Shown one piece after another: positions 16,565 through 25,060 of a stretch of 64,000 bases of DNA. A program made the translations under genes and the position numbers. Each line of letters opens with the position of its first letter. Positions within the stretch are counted from its first letter, which is position 1. Under the pieces are notes generated by a model, which did no database searches, was not told the DNA's origin, and saw only the letters and a program-made list of their open reading frames with translations. The stretch covers positions 1,252,672 through 1,316,671 of the forward strand of contig OZ219918.1 of assembly GCA_964291415.2 (NCBI GenBank), written 5' to 3'. The DNA is from Alphaproteobacteria bacterium (GTDB taxonomy: Bacteria; Pseudomonadota; Alphaproteobacteria; SP197).

Positions 16565-17049
16565 TGTCTTGAGAAGTTCAGCGCGCCATTCGATCGCCAC
16601 ACCAGAACGGGCCCCATCACGTGGCGGCGATGTGCTGTCAACATGCACCGACCAGCGAACCAACAACGGATGGCTCGCAGGTGGTAACGCGCGTCGGCGT
16701 ACGGCGAAGATCGCGGAGAAGGCGGTTTGACCGCCACAAGCGGATTCTTCGACGGCAACCCATTACTATTGGGAGTTGGTTGCGGCCTGAAGTCACAGTC
16801 CCTCTTGCCGTTCCCACTCATCACGAACTCGGTAGCGATTACAATTTCGAGCAATTCCTAAGTGACCCGAGTTACGGATACGACGTCCAAGCATTCGCAC
16901 GCGCACGACCTCATCGCTGTACCTTATTCAAATCGTTGGGGTTGATGGAGATCACGCAAATGAAGGCGGCACCAGTCGCACGCGCCCGCCGCGCAAGCGT
17001 GCAAGCAGCGGCGCAAACGTAAGCGTTCGGCGAGACCGCCCCGGCGAGA

Positions 17050-18586
17050 TCAGGCTTCGGCCTGCCGATCTTCCGCCGGCGCGGTGTTCCACGGCAGCAG
17101 TTCGTCGATGCGGTTGATCTTGTAGTCCGGGATTCGTTCAAGGACGTCGGCAAGCCAGGCCTGCGGGTCGAGGCCGTTGAGCTTGGCGGTCTCGGTCAGG
17201 GTGTAGGCGATGGCAGCGGCCTTGCCGCCGCTGGCCGAGCCCATGAAGAGATAGTTCTTCCTTCCCACCGCGATCGGTCGGATCGCGCGCTCCGCCGGCA
17301 TTGTTATCGAGTTCCAGGAAGCCGTGCTCGAGATAAGGCCGCAGGCGCTTGATGCGGGTCAGCGCATAGCGGATCGCCGCCGCCAGAGGGGTCTTGGCGG
17401 AGATCTTCGGCAGTTGCGCGTGCAGCCAGCGCTCGAACTCGTCGAGGCGCGGCGCGGCCTTGCCGCGGCGGATGGCGACACGCCGCTCGGGGGGAAGGCC
17501 GCGGGCCTCCTTCTCGATCGCATAGAGGGCGGCGATCCGTTCCAGCGCCTCGGCGGCGATCGCCGAGCCCTGGGCGGCATGGACATCGAAGAACTTGCGC
17601 CGGATATGGGCCATGCAGGCGACCTCGCGGACCGGACCGGCGCGGGCCAGTGCACCGAACCCGGCATAGCCGTCCGAGTGCATCCAGCCGCTGAAGCCCG
17701 TCAGATGTTCCTGAGGATGCGCCGCCTTGCGGTCGGTCGAGAAGCGATACCAGGCCGCCGGCGCTGCCGCGCCCTGCCAGGGCCGCTCGTCCCGGACGTA
17801 GGTCCACACCCGCCCGGTCGCCGTCTTGCCGGTTCCCGGCGCCAGAAGCTTGACCGGGGTGTCGTCGGCGAACAACGCCTGGCCGGCCAGCACGTGGCGT
17901 CCGATCGCCTCGGCCAGCGGCTCCAGCAGCGCTGTGCTCTTGCCGACCCAGCCGGCCAGCGTCGAACGGTCGAGTTCCACGCCGTCGCGGGCGAAGATCC
18001 GGCTCATACGATACAGAGGCAAATGATCGCAGTACTTCGAGACCAGCACGTGCGCGAGAAGGCCGGGCCCCGGACGGCCGCGCTCGATCGGCCGCGGCGG
18101 CAAGGGTGTCTGGTGGAAGCGTTCGCAACTGCCGCAGGCCAGGCGCGGGCGAACGATGCGCTTCACCACGAAGCGACCGGGGATGTACTCCAGCTCCTCG
18201 GTCACATCCTGGCCCAGCCGCTTGAGATGCCCGCCGCAGTCCGTGCAGCGTTCGCCTGGCGCCAGGATCGTCTCCTGGCGCGGCAGATGATCCGGCAAGG
18301 GGCGGCGTCTGGGTTGCTTCTTCGCAGGCGTCGGTGGTTCGGGCAGCGCCTCGGCCGTCTGGGCGATCTCCTCGTCCTCCAGGGCGAGCTCGAGCTGGTC
18401 GAGAGCTTCCGAAGAGGCGCCGAAGCGCTGCCGGCGCAGACCCGCAAGCTGATGCTTGAGCTTCTCGATCAGCAGATCGCGGTGGCGCAGCTCGGTGTCC
18501 CGCGCCGCCAGTTCGGCCCTGGAGGTCAGCACCATGGCCTTCAATGCAGCGATGTCGTCAGGCAGGGAATGGGCTTCGGCGAGCAT
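17050..18586 (-). CDS. tnpC: IS66 transposase TnpC (frameshift near 17300)
   Basis: FGASSE, RRPLPDHLPR, CxxCG, KYCDHLPLYR, ADDTPV, DGY, CMAHIRRKF, LDNN. C-terminus AERAIRPIAVGRKNYLF lies in another frame. Confidence 0.9.
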
Positions 18587-18659
18587 GGCGGCAGCCTACC
18601 CGAAAGGGTCGGCGAAGGGAAGCCCGAATCAACTCAACATGTTGTTAAAATGTCGTGAA

Positions 18660-18857
18660 TCAGCCCGCAGACAACGGCCTCCACGTCCGCACAGGGGCCC
18701 GCCAGTCGATCCCCTCCAGCAGCATCGACAGCTGCGCCGGCGTCATCGTCACCTTGCCCCCGGACGCCGACGGCCACACGAAACGGCCGCGCTCCAGACG
18801 CTTCGAGAACAGGCATGCTCCCTGACCGTCCCACCAGATCACCTTGACCAGGTCGCC
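18660..18857 (-). pseudogene. tnpB: IS66 TnpB, 3' part
   Basis: GDLVKVIWWDGQGACLFSKRLERGRFVWP...LSMLLEGIDWR. Confidence 0.9.
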
Positions 18858-18892
18858 TAACCTCATCTCATTCTGCATACCGTCATAGCTTC

Positions 18893-19339
18893 GTGACGGT
18901 GGAGTATCGGTGGCACCCCTTTCACGGGCGTCGCCTCCATGCCCGCAACGCCGGCCGTCGCGACGGAATCCTCCTTCTCGTTGACGGGGACCCGCACACG
19001 TCCCGCAAGGTGCCTGACTGGATGTGCGATCCCGCCATCTGCCAAGCAATGACGCTGGGTCCACCGCTGGTTCGGCTCGACGCACTGTCCGAACTGTCGG
19101 CGGCCCTGGTGAGCCTGTTGCCGGGCGGAACAGGCCCGTCATCATCGGCCTCCCCCCGGAAGGAGAATGCCGATGAAGTCACCGACGTCACGACCACGAA
19201 CCCAACTCCGGTTGAGCCTGGAACCGCCGGTACCGGCGGCGCCGCGATCGGCGGCGCTGATGCGGGCTCTGGCGGATCTTCTGCTCGAAGCCCTGGATCC
19301 GGAGACCGTCACGACCGAGCCAAGGGAGGCGATCGATGA
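18893..19339 (+). CDS. accessory protein of the recombinase element (Y4bD/DUF5372-like)
   Basis: VEYRWHPFHGR...VPDWMCD...LDALSELSAAL pattern, typical of small ORFs preceding these recombinases. Stop overlaps the recombinase ATG. Confidence 0.55.
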   Translation: MTVEYRWHPFHGRRLHARNAGRRDGILLLVDGDPHTSRKVPDWMCDPAICQAMTLGPPLVRLDALSELSAALVSLLPGGTGPSSSASPRKENADEVTDVTTTNPTPVEPGTAGTGGAAIGGADAGSGGSSARSPGSGDRHDRAKGGDR

Positions 19340-19358
19340 ACTCCAAGATCACGTCTGA
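19167..19358 (+). CDS. small accessory ORF (possible directionality factor)
   Basis: GGAG RBS. QLRLSLE...ALMRALADLLLEAL amphipathic helix overlapping the recombinase start. Confidence 0.4.
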   Translation: MPMKSPTSRPRTQLRLSLEPPVPAAPRSAALMRALADLLLEALDPETVTTEPREAIDELQDHV

Positions 19359-21420
19359 GCATCTTTGCCGCGGCGCCACCGTCTACATCCGCCAGTCCAC
19401 GCCGGTGCAGGTGCTGGAGAACACCGAGAGCCAGAGGCGGCAATACGGGCTGGTGGATTCGGCCAAGGCCGCTGGATTCGCGTCGGTGACGGTGATCGAC
19501 GACGATCTTGGCCGTTCTGGCTCCGGGGTGGCGGACCGTCCCGGGTTCCAGAAGCTGGCCGCCGCGGTGTGTGCCGGATCGGTCGGCGCGGTGTTCTGCA
19601 TTGAGGCGTCCAGGCTCGCCCGCAATGGCCGGGACTGGCATCATCTGATCGACCTGTGCGCACTGGCCGGCGCACTGGTCATTGATCCGGACGGGACCTA
19701 CGATCCGCGCCTGATCAACGACCGGCTATTGCTCGGGCTGAAGGGGACGATGTCGGAGTATGAGCTGAGCCTGCTGCGCCAGCGCGGCCTCGCCGCCCGG
19801 GACGCCAAGGCCGGGCGCGGCGAGCTTCGGTTCACCCTGCCGCCGGGCTATTGCTGGGCCGAGAACGGGCGCATCGAGATCGACCCCGACGAGCGCGTGG
19901 CGGACGCGATCCGTCTGGTGTTCGAGAAGTTCCGGGAACTCGGCAGCTCGCGCCAGGTGTATCTATGGTTCCTGGCTGCCGGGCTGAGCCTGCCGGTGGT
20001 GCGGCGCAACTCCGTCGCGCGCCATATCGAGTGGCGGTCGGCGGCCTACCACACGGTGCGCCAGATTCTGAAGAGCCCGATCTATGCCGGGGCCTACGCC
20101 TTCGGGCGGACCGCGGGGCGAACCCGGATCGTGGACGGGCGGGCTCGGAAGACCGAGGGGCACAAGCGCCCGATTACTGACTGGAGGGTGCTGCTGCGCG
20201 ACAACCACGAGGGCTACATCACCTGGGAGCGTTTCGAGGAGAACCAGAGGACGCTGCTTGAGAATGCTCACATGAAGAAGCGTGCCTCGCGAAAGTCGGG
20301 CCGGGGCGGCCGGGCCCTGTTGACCGGCCTGGCGCGCTGCGGGCGCTGCGGGCGCATGATGCGGGTGTTCTACCAGGGCCGGTCGAATCATCCGTATCGC
20401 TACCAGTGCCGGGGAGACTCCAACGGCGCAGGTCTGTGCAATGGCATCGGCGGGTTGCGTATCGACCGCGCTGTCGCCGCGTGCATTCTGGATGCGGTCT
20501 CGCCGCACGCTGTGGAGGCGGCAATGCAGGCGGCCGAGCAAGCTGACCGGGCAGCGGTCGAGCGCCGGCGCGCCGTGGAGCGCGAGCTTGAGGAGGCCGA
20601 GTACGAAGCCTCGCTCGCGGCCCGGCGCTACGAGCTGGTCGATCCCGCCAAGCGGCACGTCGCGCGGGAGCTGGAGGCGCGGTGGAACACCGCGCTTGAG
20701 CGCGTCGAGCAGATCGCGCAACGCCTGGTCGGCCTGGACGCCGAGCGGGCGTCGCGTCCCTCGATCGATCGGGCGGCGCTGATGGATCTGGCGCAGGATC
20801 TTCCCGCGGTGTGGAACGCGCCGACGACGAGTGCGGGGGCGAAGCAGCGTTTGATCCGTACCCTGATCGAGGAAGTGGTGATCGGCCTGGATGATGAGGC
20901 CAACGAGGCGGTCCTGACGATCCACTGGGTGGGCGGGCGCCACAGCGAGACGCGGGTCCCGCGGAGGAGGACCGGCGGATATCCGTCCGACCGCAAGCCC
21001 GATCCGGTCGAGGTCATGTGCAAGCTTGGCGGTTGCTTCCCCGACCGCGATCTTGCGGTGACGATGAACAGAATGCGATGCAGGACCGAAGACGGCGGCA
21101 CCTGGACGATGGTACGAGTCCGCGAGCTCCGGGAGCGCTTGGGTATCGCCGCGTTCGATCCGGCGACGTCAGGTCCCGAGACGATTAGCGCCCAAGAGAC
21201 GGCACATCGCCTTGGGATCTACATCACCTCGGTCCATCAACTCATCCGCGAAGGCACGTTGCCGGCGAGACAACTCATGCCATCGGCTCCGTGGCAGATC
21301 CCGGTCGAAGCACTCGAAAGCGAGGCGGTTCGGATAGGCGTGCGAGAAATCATTGCGCGCCGTCCCGGCAATACCACGCAATTACAAAATCTTAACATTC
21401 CCAGGCTGCCGGGGATCTAA
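19336..21420 (+). CDS. large serine recombinase (resolvase + recombinase + Zn-ribbon + C-terminal HTH)
   Basis: YIRQST catalytic Ser, [40 protein letters not shown], coiled coil. Confidence 0.95.
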
Positions 21421-21446
21421 GAATGGGGACGCACAATGTCACACGA

Positions 21447-21601
21447 TCGCCCCGGCGGCCCCGGAACACGAACAGATGCCCGCTGTAGGGATCCGCCTTG
21501 AGCACCTCCTCGGCCAGCGCCGCCAGGCCCGGAAAGCCCTTGCGCATGTCCGTCACGCCGCTCGACAGCCAGACCCGGGTCGAAGACGGAACCGGAATCA
21601 T
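21447..21601 (-). pseudogene. tnpB: IS66 TnpB, 5' part
   Basis: [29 protein letters not shown]...[16 protein letters not shown]. Confidence 0.9.
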
Positions 21602-21951
21602 CTCAGCAGCGCCCGCACCACGCGACACAGGGCATCCACGTCGAACGACCCGCTCGCGCTCACCCGGTGGCCGCTCGCCAGCGCCACCTCGATGCGGCCG
21701 TCCGATGCCGCGGGCGCCGCCGATGGCGGCGACAAGGGCTCGGGAACCACCTCGACAGGCAGGAACGAGGTCTCGGCCTCGCCATCCCCGGCCCGCCGGA
21801 AGCGGGGATCGCGACGCCACTTGAAGATCAGGTTGGCGTTGACGTCATAGCGGCGTCCCACCTGGGACACCGAAACCCCCGGCGCCCAGGTCTGCGCCAC
21901 GATCCGGCGCTTCTCGTCCTCCGACCAGAACCGGCGTACTCGACGCGCCAC
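21598..21951 (-). CDS. tnpA: IS66 TnpA (HTH)
   Basis: [16 protein letters not shown]...[36 protein letters not shown]. Confidence 0.9.
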
Positions 21952-22234
21952 CGCAAAAGCCTCCTCCGATGGTGTCCACCAACCGATGGTGGACACCATC
22001 GAGCACTGGACCGACACCATCCGAATCTGCAGCTCCGCACTGAGCAGCCGCAAGGGCGGTCAGACCGAACGCTTACGCGCAAACTGGAGACGGGAGCCGC
22101 TGAATCTCATGGCGGAGACGGTAATGCGCGTGTATCTCTTGCGTTCATTTGTTTGTTCCGTGAGCAGTACGTCGAGGTTCTCGTGTCCCAAGGCGCCCCG
22201 AAGCGACCCATGGCGTCCCAGTCACCGGGAGTGG

Positions 22235-22440
22235 CCGCCGCCTCGGCGTCGCGAACCAAGCAGGAGGATCGAGCGTTCATTTGCACCGAGGTGTGACCGA
22301 GCAGTGTCCCGATTATCAACAGGGGTTCCCCGAGGGCGCAGGCAGGCGAAGCGCACCCGAGCCGGAAGTCATGAATGCGCACATCTTCCAGTTCGGCCCG
22401 CTCGCGTCTGCGCTCCGTGCAACACTTGACGTGTCGGCAG
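22235..22440 (-). pseudogene. tyrosine integrase C-terminal remnant
   Basis: AELEDVRIHDFR...GEPLLIIGTLLGHTSVQMNARS (decayed HxLRH / LGH...Y). Confidence 0.75.
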
Positions 22441-22858
22441 GGATCGGATCCGGACGACCGCAGGCACCACGCCCGACGAGCGAGAGCATCGTGGAGAGAA
22501 TGCAGGCGTCCGGTTCGCCTGGTGGGGCGCGACACGCAGGTAGAAGTGCAGCCTGTCGATGTCCTTGCGTTCCACCACGCAGAACCGCATTGCGACGACA
22601 CACCCTGCAGCCGGCGCCGCCTCAAGCGCCCTACGAAGTCGCGTCAGGCGAGCAGACACGGTGTTGACAGCACCTCCGGCGGAACCTTCATCGAGGAAGC
22701 AGTGCAGCCATCGGGAACACCATGTGTGCACCCGCGGTGCTGAACCGAAAATGTAACTAACTGCATGCACGGCCTTTTCTCTCTCACGATTCTATGCCTG
22801 GGGCACGGAAACAGGTCGTTTCCCTGCCCTCGGTGCAACACGCGAGGGAGAGAAAACC

Positions 22859-23337
22859 ATGGCGACCAGCCGTCTCACGCAACGCAGGATCGACGCCCAA
22901 AGGCCGCGCAAGAAGGTCTGTGCCATCCGCGATACCGACATCAAGGGGTTCGGTCTTCGTATTCTGCCTTCCGGGCGCAAGCACTTCCTGCACAGCCAGG
23001 TCAACGGTAGACGCGTCTGGCATGTCATCGGGAGTGTCACGTCCATCACGCTCGACGAGGCACGCCACGAGGCACGAGGCATCCTGACAGCGAGACGCGA
23101 GGGTAACGATCCTCCTAGCGATATCGCTCCCGACCCTCCGTTCGAGACGGTGGCCGACGAGGTCTTCCGGCGATATCGGCGTCACTGGAAGGCAAGCACC
23201 TTCAAGGTCAACGCCTACTACTACAGGAAACGGATCCTGCCCTGGTTTGGAGGCATGGCCATCCGCAGCATCACGCGTGCCGACGTTCAGCGATGGTTCG
23301 CCTCGCTCCATGCCACGCCGGCAGCTGCGGACCGTTC
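22859..23337 (+). pseudogene. tyrosine integrase N-terminal fragment (arm-binding DUF4102-like), truncated by an IS66 end
   Basis: LTQRRID...IRDTDIKGFGLRILPSGRK...ITLDEARHEAR...ITRADVQRWF. Ends where GTAAGCGG begins at 23338. Confidence 0.8.
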
Positions 23338-23953
23338 GTAAGCGGACATTTTGCGACGCCCTTGACGCCGGGCGTCCCGCACCCCTGACCAACTTGTGAT
23401 TTTCAGGCTGCCTGCGGCAGCTTCGTGGGGACGGCCTTGCCGACGTCGGATGTCATCGGGTTGTCGGCGAAGCGCTCCTTCCACAGACGCGCCCGCCGCA
23501 GGATCCCCTGCTCAAGGCCATCGGCTACGCCCGCAACCACAGGAGCGGCCTCGAGGTCTGCCTCCAGGATCCCGCCGTGGCAATCGACACGAACCATCTC
23601 GAAAGGTGCGTCAGGCCGGTCGCGCTGGGACGCCGCAACTGGCTGTTCTGCTGGAGCGAGGCGGGCGCGGAAGCCGTCGGCATCCTGCAGAGCTTGGTGC
23701 TGACATGCCGCCTGCACGGTATCGATCCCTACACGTGGCTGGTCGACGTTCTGCTGCGGGTCTCGACCCATCCCGCCCGGGATGTGGCCCAGCTGACGCC
23801 ACGCCTGTGGAAGGACCACTTCGCTGAGAACCCGATGACATCCGACATCAGCAGGGCCGTGCTCGCGAAGGTGCCGCAGGCAGCCTGAAAATCACAAGTT
23901 GGTCAGGGGTGCGGGAAGCCCGGCGTCAAGGACGTCGCAAAATGACCGGATAC
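23338..23953. mobile_element. IS66-derived miniature element made of two inverted tnpC 3' ends
   Basis: GTAAGCGGACATTTTGCGACG at the left and CGTCGCAAAATGACCGGATAC at the right. ~145-bp imperfect inverted arms. Internal tnpC C-terminus (IDTNHLER...GRRNWLF). No TSD. Confidence 0.8.
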
Positions 23954-23965
23954 GGCCCAACGGCG

Positions 23966-25060
23966 CTAGTCCAACCGAAAAACGTCATTGTCGAGGTCGT
24001 CAACCGCCTGCCTTCGCTGTTCCCGGGCCTGTCGGGCTGCACCGACGAGTTCGACCGAGCGCTTCACCTCGCCGACGCAGCGCATGGCGTCGTCATAACC
24101 CTGCTCGATCCAGGAGTGAATATCCGCCGAAAAGTTGAACATATCCCGCTTCTCGCCCGCAAAGCCTTCCTTTCGCCTCATTGTGCGGCCCGGTCGGATT
24201 TCAAGGACGACCGTGTTCGGAAACCTGTTCCGCGGCCAGGGCGAACCTTCGGACGAATGGGTGACAATAAGGTGGGTGCAACCGGCGTGCTCGACCAGAG
24301 GTTCGGCCGGAGTGTTCCCCTGCCTCGTGCGGTAGCCGCCCAACACGCCGTCCACAAACCGCCGGTTATCCGGCCCGAGCCTGCGGGCCTGCAACACGAT
24401 CGGCATGGCAGCCGAGGCCAGGATTGTCGCTTTGCGTTCATCACGCGGAAGCGACTGGATGTGGCGGAATTCGGACGGCGGCGTGTCCCACAACTCCAGC
24501 AGCATGCCACCAAGAGCAAGCGAGTCGGTCAACATCTCCTCACTCGCGAAGATCGACACGTAGAGGGGCAGCCCTTCTCCCTTCAGAAGAAGCTTCATGC
24601 CGCGATCGAGCATTTTCTCAAGTGATGCCGCGTCCGCCAGTTCAAGAGAGAGAAAACCAACCTTCCTGAGCGCTGCGGCAAGAACAGCTGCAACATCTAC
24701 AGCCTTTGCATATCGGGGGTCCTCTTCATACCGAGGATGATTGCGAGCCCGCCCCAGAATCATGGGCAGGCCTACCCCGAGGACGAACTTGCCTGGTTGC
24801 CACTCGAGCGGGCTGTTTCCGATCAGCCTGGTCCAGAGTTCCTCCAGTTCGATCGCTGCTTTCTTCAAGTCGCCGTTGGCTTCGGAAACCACGACGCCAT
24901 TCATCGCGCCTGCGCTGGCCCCGGCCACCGCATGGACATGGACATCGAGTTCGGCCAGCGCCTTGACGACGCCCGCCTGATAGGCGGCCGAGGCCCCGCC
25001 GCCGGACAACACCAACCCGACTCTGGCTTCCTTCGAATTCAACGCGATCTCCTTCGTCAC
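23966..25060 (-). CDS. patatin-like phospholipase
   Basis: GLVLSGGGASAAYQAGV, GASAG nucleophile elbow, ASAAMP, FVDGV. Confidence 0.9.
   Translation of the reverse strand: MTKEIALNSKEARVGLVLSGGGASAAYQAGVVKALAELDVHVHAVAGASAGAMNGVVVSEANGDLKKAAIELEELWTRLIGNSPLEWQPGKFVLGVGLPMILGRARNHPRYEEDPRYAKAVDVAAVLAAALRKVGFLSLELADAASLEKMLDRGMKLLLKGEGLPLYVSIFASEEMLTDSLALGGMLLELWDTPPSEFRHIQSLPRDERKATILASAAMPIVLQARRLGPDNRRFVDGVLGGYRTRQGNTPAEPLVEHAGCTHLIVTHSSEGSPWPRNRFPNTVVLEIRPGRTMRRKEGFAGEKRDMFNFSADIHSWIEQGYDDAMRCVGEVKRSVELVGAARQAREQRRQAVDDLDNDVFRLD

Follow-up and report, generated by a model that had tools for sequence, protein, structure and literature searches.

The 64,000-nucleotide stretch analysed here (the window; positions 1,252,672 to 1,316,671 of contig OZ219918.1, assembly GCA_964291415.2, from an alphaproteobacterium) holds an IS66-family insertion sequence (IS) whose tnpB gene is split by an insert of 2594 bp (18858-21451). 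The insert encodes a large serine recombinase and two small open reading frames (ORFs), orf1 and orf2, and carries no cargo. Membership of the host in the IS66 family is seen in its tnpA, tnpB and tnpC domains, its terminal inverted repeats and its 8-bp target duplication, and the first-pass annotation had rightly described these ends as retained. The N-terminal part of tnpB was matched by positions 2-43 of the TnpB_IS66 profile on the piece 21452-21640 (Pfam). All features of the locus are collected in Table 1.

Table 1. Features of the IS66 host and of the element inserted in its tnpB gene (window positions)
Feature	Position	Strand	Basis
IS66-family insertion sequence, host of the element	17019-22076	minus	inverted repeats, target duplication, Pfam domains
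8-bp target duplication GCGCAAAC of the host IS66	17011-17018 (left copy), 22077-22084 (right copy)		identical 8 bp on both sides
IS66 terminal inverted repeat, tnpC side	17019-17046		29-nt pair, 83% complementary to 22049-22077
IS66 tnpC (DDE transposase), 1-nt frameshift near 17295	17050-18586	minus	Pfam and blastx
tnpB C-terminal part, from Gly-Asp of RGD onward; B' side of the attachment site	18660-18857	minus	TnpB_IS66 profile 45-99
Predicted left crossover dinucleotide CC, read on the tnpB strand as GG of the Gly codon	18856-18857		homolog junction comparison
Putative left-end recombinase half-site: 11-nt spacer and CATTCTGC (18869-18876)	18858-18876	plus	family motif CATTCNGCATAC
orf1 body: DUF5372-like N-domain to ~19120, then unconstrained tail over orf2	18869-19339	plus	codon periodicity
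orf2, ~60 aa, basic N-terminus, conserved ALADLLLEAL-type helix	19167-19358	plus	conserved in 75 loci
Large serine recombinase, 694 aa, extra C-terminal winged-helix-like domain	19336-21420	plus	Pfam
Purine-rich GGGGA and ATG (21436-21438), proposed orf1 ribosome site and start	21424-21438	plus	right end of the element
Putative right-end recombinase half-site: GCACAATG (21431-21438) and 11-nt spacer	21431-21449	plus	conserved end motif
Predicted right crossover dinucleotide CC	21450-21451		homolog junction comparison
tnpB N-terminal part (50 codons, last residues ...FRGRR), forming the B side of the attachment site	21452-21601	minus	TnpB_IS66 profile 2-43
IS66 tnpA	21598-22053	minus	Pfam HTH_Tnp_1
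IS66 terminal inverted repeat, tnpA side	22049-22076		followed by the second target-duplication copy

The borders of the insert can be read directly. The pentamer TCGCC stands at 18853-18857 and again at 21447-21451, with 2594 nt from one copy to the other, and the minus-strand tnpB frame reaches ...F-R-G-R-R-G at 21452 and is picked up at 18857 as (G)D-L-V-K-V, the insert thereby interrupting the Gly codon of the RGD motif. Both the placement at the RGD codons with TCGCC at either end and the dyad formed by the joined ends, GCACAATG-11 nt-CC-11 nt-CATTCTGC, in which the two octamers are complementary at 7/8 positions around the CC, had been proposed from the first reading of the letters and were confirmed. 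Related DNA was also compared in four sequencing runs, a comparison made at the level of contigs, with best word shares of 0.43 and 0.42, in which uncovered parts are uninformative. A metagenome contig of a related IS66 (run X4) bridges 18852 to 21447, skipping 2594 nt with five ambiguous letters, which gives independent support for the same boundaries. Other joints, for example 18745-21817 and 18803-21543, were left uninterpreted, as their sides are short and the metagenomes were compared at 90% likeness. The host has suffered elsewhere too: the tnpC domains DDE_Tnp_IS66, LZ_Tnp_IS66, zf-IS66 and DDE_Tnp_IS66_C (Pfam) are divided between two overlapping ORFs, the reading frame shifts at ~17295 relative to an intact homolog (blastx), and one base is missing at 17295 in a related contig of run X1. 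As judged from these comparisons the host IS66 is therefore defective twice, by the insertion in tnpB and by an independent frameshift in tnpC.

The recombinase has the organization of the large serine recombinases: an N-terminal catalytic domain (Pfam Resolvase, residues 15-163, E 2.6e-20), a Recombinase domain (188-310) and a zinc ribbon with four cysteines (Zn_ribbon_recom, 328-380), together with a 2-bp core at its sites. A weak Rv2175c_wHTH/HTH_17 match covers residues 615-661. In an alignment of 68 homologs, Y17, R19, Q20 and S21 and the cysteines C335, C338, C358 and C368 are invariant, and the recombinase of the window retains every residue that is invariant across this set; S21 is presumably the serine nucleophile, as assigned from the usual motif. 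The closest solved relative is the SPbeta integrase, a distant one (E 2.4e-9 over residues 61-345), and the top NCBIfam model is XisF, the excisase of the fdxN element, with an E of 8.1e-24 and 84 bits against a cut-off of 375. On its domains and sites the insert is a minimal large-serine-recombinase element, and catalysis of attP x attB recombination is predicted, for the window between an attP made of 21425-21451 and 18858-18885 and an attB made of 18830-18857 and 21452-21480.

Relatives were sought in one genome per species across 185,579 species. Of the 320 relatives found, the best 80 were kept (63-84% recombinase identity), and locus counts below refer to these 80 homologous loci plus the window (n = 81). 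Isolates of Alpha-, Beta- and Gammaproteobacteria are represented among the kept relatives, as are bins labelled Verrucomicrobiota, Acidobacteriota, Myxococcota, Gemmatimonadota and Actinomycetota. Many lie on contigs of 2.3-3.8 kb, as expected because a repeat collapses in short-read assemblies. With the TnpB pieces of the window as queries, a tnpB half was found directly adjoining the element in 62/81 loci, antiparallel in 32, co-oriented in 29 and mixed in one, and the abutting N halves stop at residue 62/63 while the C halves begin at residue 1/2. A profile made from the tnpB flanks adds two loci, bringing those at the same tnpB codon to 64/81; counted per side, tnpB is present in 48/63 adequate left flanks and 50/65 adequate right flanks. 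The homolog survey thus bears out the earlier proposal of a minimal element that targets IS66, and the element is very probably a member of a widespread, cargo-free family of ~2.6 kb that homes to the most conserved stretch of tnpB. Among plasmids, a homolog is present in 98 PLSDB records, most of which belong to Sinorhizobium, Bradyrhizobium, Rhizobium and Azospirillum, and in all 98 the annotation says no more than 'recombinase family protein'.

The junctions of the element were compared in the 61/81 loci where regular expressions found both end motifs, which in all elements read GCAYWATG (right) and CATTCNGCATAC (left). Counting 11 nt outward from each motif, the dinucleotide reached is the same at both junctions in 50/61 loci, and at positions shifted by -8 to +8 such a match occurs in just 1-18/61. 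The shared dinucleotide is CC in 21 loci, GG in 10, CG in 7, GC in 6, AG in 2, AA in 2, CA in 1 and TG in 1. Since it varies among elements, the agreement between the two junctions represents covariation and not mere conservation. By this comparison the central dinucleotide is the 2-bp crossover core that a serine recombinase predicts, with one copy kept at each junction.

On the tnpB strand the core corresponds to bases 1-2 of the Gly codon in R-G-D, and where a Verrucomicrobiota-type tnpB has CGC at that codon the elements carry CG. The core is CC at both junctions in 17 antiparallel loci and GG at both in 9 co-oriented loci, CG and GC are found in both orientations, and at the lone co-oriented CC locus (L083) the target also has CC. 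From these combinations, the core of the element matches that of the target and sets the orientation of insertion, CC giving antiparallel and GG co-oriented copies and the palindromic CG and GC either. On a tree of the recombinases (73/81 sequences, incomplete matches and those with stops or N being left out) orientation switches at least 11-14 times, and the close sisters L068 (antiparallel, CC) and L070 (co-oriented, GG) differ in just this way. Logos of the attachment sites were drawn from the 42 tnpB loci in which the two cores are equal and 26 nt of flank are available. In these, attP shows dyad symmetry at positions 12-14 and 19-21 counted from the core. attB shows none, and its conservation follows the coding sequence F-x-F-R-G-x-R-G-D-L-I-K-V-L-W.

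Two groups of loci count against a strict version of this picture. The dinucleotides at the two junctions are unequal in 11/61 loci, and of the 17 loci outside the common tnpB codon, 6 have flanks shorter than 30 nt but the other 11 (11/81) have at least 100 nt of flank without tnpB, indicating that either the specificity would not be absolute or rearrangements would be common.

Several individual copies deserve mention. In L036 (5-3214) the element lies, with a CC core at both junctions, inside the gene of a different, distantly related recombinase. The left flank of L010 (53-349) resembles IS66 tnpC instead of tnpB, and the copies in L013, L034, L073 and L076 are in unrelated DNA. L052 (3356-6248) has N-terminal tnpB halves on both flanks, one forward and one inverted, around a palindromic GC core, and looks like the outcome of an inversion, or of an exchange in which two occupied IS66 copies took part.

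Filled and empty sites can be compared within a single genome. Azospirillum sp. B510 has three filled and four empty copies of its host IS, annotated as ISAzs20, distributed over three plasmids. The empty site reads flank, GG, flank, and the filled site has GG at each junction and is otherwise unchanged. In Paraburkholderia sp. HD33-4, identical recombinases (L041, L042) occupy two different IS66 copies of one genome. As read from such pairs, integration is conservative and leaves one copy of the core at each junction. A conservative 2-bp crossover means that precise excision would restore the tnpB frame, and the prediction of the first-pass annotation to this effect is upheld by the 50/61 junction dinucleotides together with the comparison of filled and empty copies in B510.

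These observations bear on whether the recombinase module moves at all by itself. It could be a passenger of a variant IS66 and be carried solely by IS66 transposition, as the presence of the element together with IS66 in 64/81 loci would allow. In B510, moreover, two IS66::element composites of 5416 bp on two plasmids are 99.9% identical. They have different flanks and no target duplications, and could equally have arisen by composite transposition or by independent hits into identical IS copies. A passenger would not be expected in tnpB genes only 30-85% identical to that of the window and in both orientations, nor would it produce filled and empty copies of one IS in one genome that differ exactly by the element and one core dinucleotide. 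Copies outside tnpB (L036 in a recombinase gene; L013, L034, L073 and L076) and the destruction of tnpB by the insert speak against it further, and we consider a pure passenger highly improbable. IS66 elements occur in multiple copies and on plasmids, which makes the hitch-hiking proposed in the first-pass annotation plausible. One B510 copy is rearranged: in L091 (2430-3888, plasmid pAB510f) most of the left arm has given way to an ISAzs20 end, which meets the element 113 nt upstream of the recombinase start. On the right this copy borders on a different, oppositely oriented IS66, with a GG core.

A further alternative, the view of the first-pass annotation, is that of a reversible genetic switch, in which regulated excision would restore tnpB and re-arm IS66, as the skin, SPbeta and fdxN elements do for host genes. 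The exact restoration of the frame implied by the 2-bp crossover is in line with such a role, and so is the NCBIfam match to XisF, far under its cut-off as it is. Yet no regulator or signal is apparent in the element, and the near equality of the two orientations (32 versus 29-31) speaks against a link with the transcription of IS66. The IS66 of the window, with its frameshifted tnpC, would not be re-armed by a restored tnpB, and the explanation of tnpB as a selfish safe harbour takes fewer assumptions. A switch is accordingly judged quite unlikely, and conserved tnpB codons as a landing site for a selfish element are the reading followed here.

The two small ORFs precede the recombinase gene. 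Codon periodicity in ~70 homologous left arms indicates coding in the orf1 frame from 18869 to ~19110 and in the orf2 frame from ~19169 to 19320. The DUF5372 profile matches 40/64 orf1 homologs at E up to 1 (best 2.1e-7), and the top three protein-atlas matches of orf1 are DUF5372 clusters (0.92-0.93). The orf1 of the window itself gave no DUF5372 match at E up to 1 and stays below every Pfam threshold, which weakens the assignment for this copy. No NCBIfam or Pfam family was found for either small ORF of the window, and neither matched XisH or XisI. A structural model of orf1 (pLDDT 79.5) has four strands and three helices; against the PDB its fold gave 0 matches at E up to 0.001, the best being PsaE/SH3-like small barrels at E ~0.9 to 3 (best 0.87). 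The searchable literature does not mention the DUF5372 family.

Structure prediction places the orf1 product on the recombinase. The complex of the two, predicted with both alignments, reached an ipSAE of 0.70 (three runs, 0.70-0.71) against 0.00 for the best control, a mark attained by 58/80 solved complexes and 2/110 mismatched pairs. Contacts are shared between the runs to at least 90%, and the pLDDT of the partner is at least 72. The predicted interface comprises recombinase residues 334-341, 383-400, 475-515 and 528-538 and orf1 residues 15-18, 46-48 and 60-85, and takes in the invariant W531, G533, G534 and H536 of the recombinase and W15, P17, R46 and G64 of orf1. Recombinase residues ~390-520, part of this interface, fall between the zinc-ribbon elements. 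The model supports binding of the DUF5372 protein to the zinc-ribbon and coiled-coil region, and according to the available parts of PMC5814800 and PMC11722253 known recombination directionality factors (RDFs) work through the zinc domain and the coiled coil.

The position of orf1 is unusual in that integration appears to split it. A ribosome-site-like run, an ATG and the first five orf1 codons lie at the right end of the element and the remainder of the gene at the left end. The right-end ATG is inside the end motif in 73/73 loci. When the ends were joined in silico, an ORF ran from this ATG into orf1 in 61/61 loci, with a median length of 167 aa compared with medians of 2 and 47 for the other two frames. 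Because the start is at the opposite end of the element, a full canonical orf1 is, on this evidence, present only when the ends are joined, as in an excised circle.

Downstream, the orf1 frame continues through orf2. It is open across orf2 in 66/69 distinct loci, against 21.5 expected when orf2 codons are shuffled, and the last base of its stop is at +1 or +4 of the recombinase start in 65/69, counts that, like the others for orf1, come from related and non-independent sequences. The stop of orf2 is at +23 within the recombinase gene in 65/75 loci, and in the window it likewise lies 23 nt inside, the orf1 stop there overlapping the ATG of the recombinase. An orf1 tail kept open without amino-acid constraint fits selection for the passage of ribosomes into the recombinase start. 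Beyond the first-pass annotation, the analysis thus adds insertion in both orientations according to the core, the apparent splitting of orf1 by integration, its overlap with orf2 and its open frame as far as the recombinase start.

The right-end ATG and purine run could have another meaning. They may be merely a binding site of the recombinase, in which case orf1 would start elsewhere, be expressed in the integrated state and act as an ordinary RDF. Dyad symmetry in attP is strongest at the ATG/CAT pair (0.95-1.0 at distances 12-14), the ATG and part of the purine run belong to this motif and could be conserved for DNA binding alone, and the in-frame placement of the ATG would follow from the fixed 27-nt geometry of the site. 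Candidate orf1 starts in the integrated state are present in 46/60 loci, among them a flank ATG in 12/23 co-oriented loci and a GTG or TTG within the first 13 orf1 codons in 16/26 antiparallel loci, and the contact surface predicted above is the one used by RDFs in the accessible text of PMC5814800. All of this weighs against a split gene. On the other side, an internal ATG in the left arm was found in 0/60 loci, and 14/60, admittedly no large share, are without any candidate start. In 61/61 loci no stop interrupts the eight codons that separate the right-end ATG from the left motif. A Shine-Dalgarno 4-mer is found 5-16 nt upstream of the right-end ATG in 56/73, compared with 0-18/73 at control offsets, although the window copy has only GGGGA as such a run. 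At distance 22, where a G of the purine run is retained in the right arm, complementarity of the two arms is never seen, and the residues H1, S2 and Y4 at the very left end of orf1 are invariant or nearly so. A pure binding site with an independent orf1 start is thus thought fairly unlikely, and a start codon separated from its gene by integration is the interpretation we prefer.

One may then outline how such an element could operate. It would leave its site as a circle through attL x attR recombination. In the circle, ribosomes would begin at the restored orf1 start, override the start of orf2 and couple into the recombinase ATG, yielding a burst of recombinase and DUF5372 protein. The DUF5372 protein might bind the base of the zinc ribbon and coiled coil of the recombinase and bias it toward attP x attB integration, and each new integration would split orf1 once more and so reset the system. 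While integrated, the element would produce only orf2 and a little recombinase, permitting rare excision. It must be noted that an RDF-like position of the DUF5372 protein would, by the logic of phage systems, favour excision, and synthesis confined to the circle would then be counter-productive. The sign of its effect is the weakest link of the proposed mechanism.

The copy in the window looks intact by sequence, its three ORFs being open and its recombinase complete in the residues conserved among homologs. Its present mobility is another matter. The circle junction that the first-pass annotation had suggested looking for did not appear in the contigs of the four sequencing runs, nor did any excision of this copy; the bridging contig of run X4 turned out to be a related, intact tnpB and not an excision product, another X4 contig carrying the element. 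The promoter scan of 18700-21700 gave zero sigma-70-like sites (shuffles, mean 0.3), and one terminator-like site there is not above chance. The element is single-copy in its own genome, where neither a second copy nor an intact copy of the same IS66 was found. The sole other TnpB_IS66 gene (contig 4, 579355-579639) is intact but divergent and has ...NRRRTL... in place of the RGD target, so that the same genome offers no second landing site. Together with a Shine-Dalgarno run weaker than in most relatives and a host IS in decay, the single copy and the lack of another target make it a serious possibility, if one slightly less probable than its opposite, that the window copy is a stranded relic, intact by sequence yet no longer moving for want of a second target. 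The open ORFs and conserved recombinase residues already mentioned tell against a relic, and a stranded copy could still excise or pass into another cell.

Comparison with known systems helps to place the element. In Tn4451/Tn4453 (TnpX) and Tn5397 (TndX) a large serine recombinase alone excises a non-replicating circle and reinserts it by a 2-bp crossover, and in this type the joining of the ends creates new expression signals for the genes of the circle. Elements of the Tn4451/Tn5397 type carry resistance or conjugation cargo and use many loose targets, whereas the present element has no cargo and is at one codon in 64/81 loci. It also differs in having two small accessory genes and in that a start codon, not only a promoter, would be restored at the joint. 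The junctions of IS911, IS30 and IS492 circles or tandems likewise assemble expression signals absent from the integrated copy, but there these are promoters for DDE or other transposases, while here a ribosome site and start codon would be joined to an accessory gene coupled to a serine recombinase. IS607 elements are similarly minimal and moved by a serine recombinase, which in that family is small, has an N-terminal DNA-binding domain and shows little target preference; the recombinase studied here has 694 aa, an N-terminal catalytic domain and a defined site. Like the fdxN element with XisF and other developmentally excised elements, the present one interrupts a gene that excision would restore. 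XisF requires two small helper proteins. The candidates here, a DUF5372 and a 60-aa protein, are not XisH and XisI, and the interrupted gene belongs to an insertion sequence.

A mobile element homing into another mobile element is known from the group II intron RmInt1 in ISRm2011-2, where, as here, a conserved sequence of the other element serves as a safe, multi-copy and horizontally travelling landing site. The enzyme class is different, and in our case a serine recombinase would recognise a protein-coding motif. Phage-type integrases (phiC31 Int/gp3, Bxb1, SPbeta SprA/SprB) have the same domain set, distinct attP and attB sites and a 2-bp core, and as far as the accessible portions of PMC5814800, PMC11795197 and PMC11722253 go, a small partner at the zinc and coiled-coil region, where it is predicted here, is a further likeness. 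The present element differs from them in its size of 2.6 kb, in an accessory gene split by integration and in a recombinase with an extra C-terminal winged-helix domain. Sequence similarity is distant (E 2.4e-9), and the DUF5372 fold is unmatched among solved structures.

In the open literature, supplements, ISfinder and subscription journals lying outside the search, no description was found of the family, its target, the core-dependent flip of orientation, the split accessory gene or the link between DUF5372 and the recombinase. The main text of PMC10083194 has 0 occurrences of IS66 or 'insertion sequence', and its supplementary database of recombinases and targets could contain the family; PMC7371123 proved unrelated. 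The class of enzyme and its reaction are already known, and what appears not to have been described is the family, the target, the flip, the split gene with its apparently selected overlapping frame, and the DUF5372 link.

The analysis defines a large family that is at present annotated only as 'recombinase family protein' beside split tnpB fragments, including on well-studied rhizobial, Azospirillum, Paracoccus and Burkholderiaceae replicons. The earlier suggestion that the locus provides a ready set of recombinase, attB and attP can be widened to many natural sets: more than 60 orthologous recombinases with attL/attR pairs give attP, attB and core for each, which would be useful for orthogonal integrase/att sets, and the natural att pairs show that a change of core flips orientation. 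For DUF5372, a role as the partner of a recombinase becomes open to testing. A start codon split from its gene and an orf2-spanning frame that is apparently kept open by selection point to a new coupling of recombination direction to the integrated or excised state. The family further offers a clear case in which the conserved coding motif of one mobile element would be a safe, multi-copy, travelling harbour for another, as well as a handle on the poorly understood TnpB of IS66.

A second family of DUF5372-recombinase elements is present in the same genome. On contig 1 there are two elements of 2714 bp, 99.7% identical (L108 and L109), with the layout DUF5372 ORF, gap, recombinase; the first of them (L108, 1983-4696) corresponds to 115482-118195 of that contig. 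They split reverse-transcriptase/maturase genes of group II introns at the FFD/FLE motif of the reverse-transcriptase domain, the flanks matching RVT_1 profile positions 1-79 on one side and RVT_1 99-204 plus GIIM on the other. The DUF5372 copy scores 25.4 against a cut-off of 25 (Pfam). Checked by hand, the right-end ATGs are out of frame with the DUF5372 ORF, a point against extending the split-gene arrangement to this family. By eye the recombinase appears frameshifted, with the C-terminal domain in another frame, for which reason the copies may be decaying.

The insertion sites of this second family point to a broader tendency to home into codons that are conserved in other mobile elements. 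A survey of 301 genomes of the phylum found DUF5372 matches in 5 genomes, and all 6 places adjoin recombinase sequence. Targeting of mobile-element genes is not universal, since in one of them (L114) the DUF5372-recombinase pair lies between a GHMP-kinase and an alpha-amylase gene. One may speculate on a guild of hyperparasitic DUF5372-recombinase mini-elements that target the best-conserved codons in genes of other mobile elements, with DUF5372 made only in the circle as a directionality factor specific for integration, opposite in logic to the RDFs of phages, and with the overlapping orf1 tail and orf2 as two mutually exclusive translational routes into the recombinase. Taken as a whole, this is possible, though on balance somewhat unlikely.

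Among the loci of the survey, L115-L117 are degraded or without the catalytic half of the recombinase. In L116 (4110-5397) and L117 (4999-6291), whose two genomes belong to the same genus, a DUF5372 ORF directly precedes a recombinase of which just the C-terminal half (~332-685) is present, an arrangement that may be a deletion derivative or a domesticated DNA-binding module.

Returning to the window, the ORF translations next to the host IS66 (22100-25060) were surveyed by eye, with no profile check. They include an N-terminal fragment like a tyrosine integrase (22859-23341), a fragment resembling an IS66 transposase C-terminus (23577-23888) and, on the minus strand, a patatin-like gene (23966-25060), and the host IS66 appears to lie in a patch of mobile-element debris.

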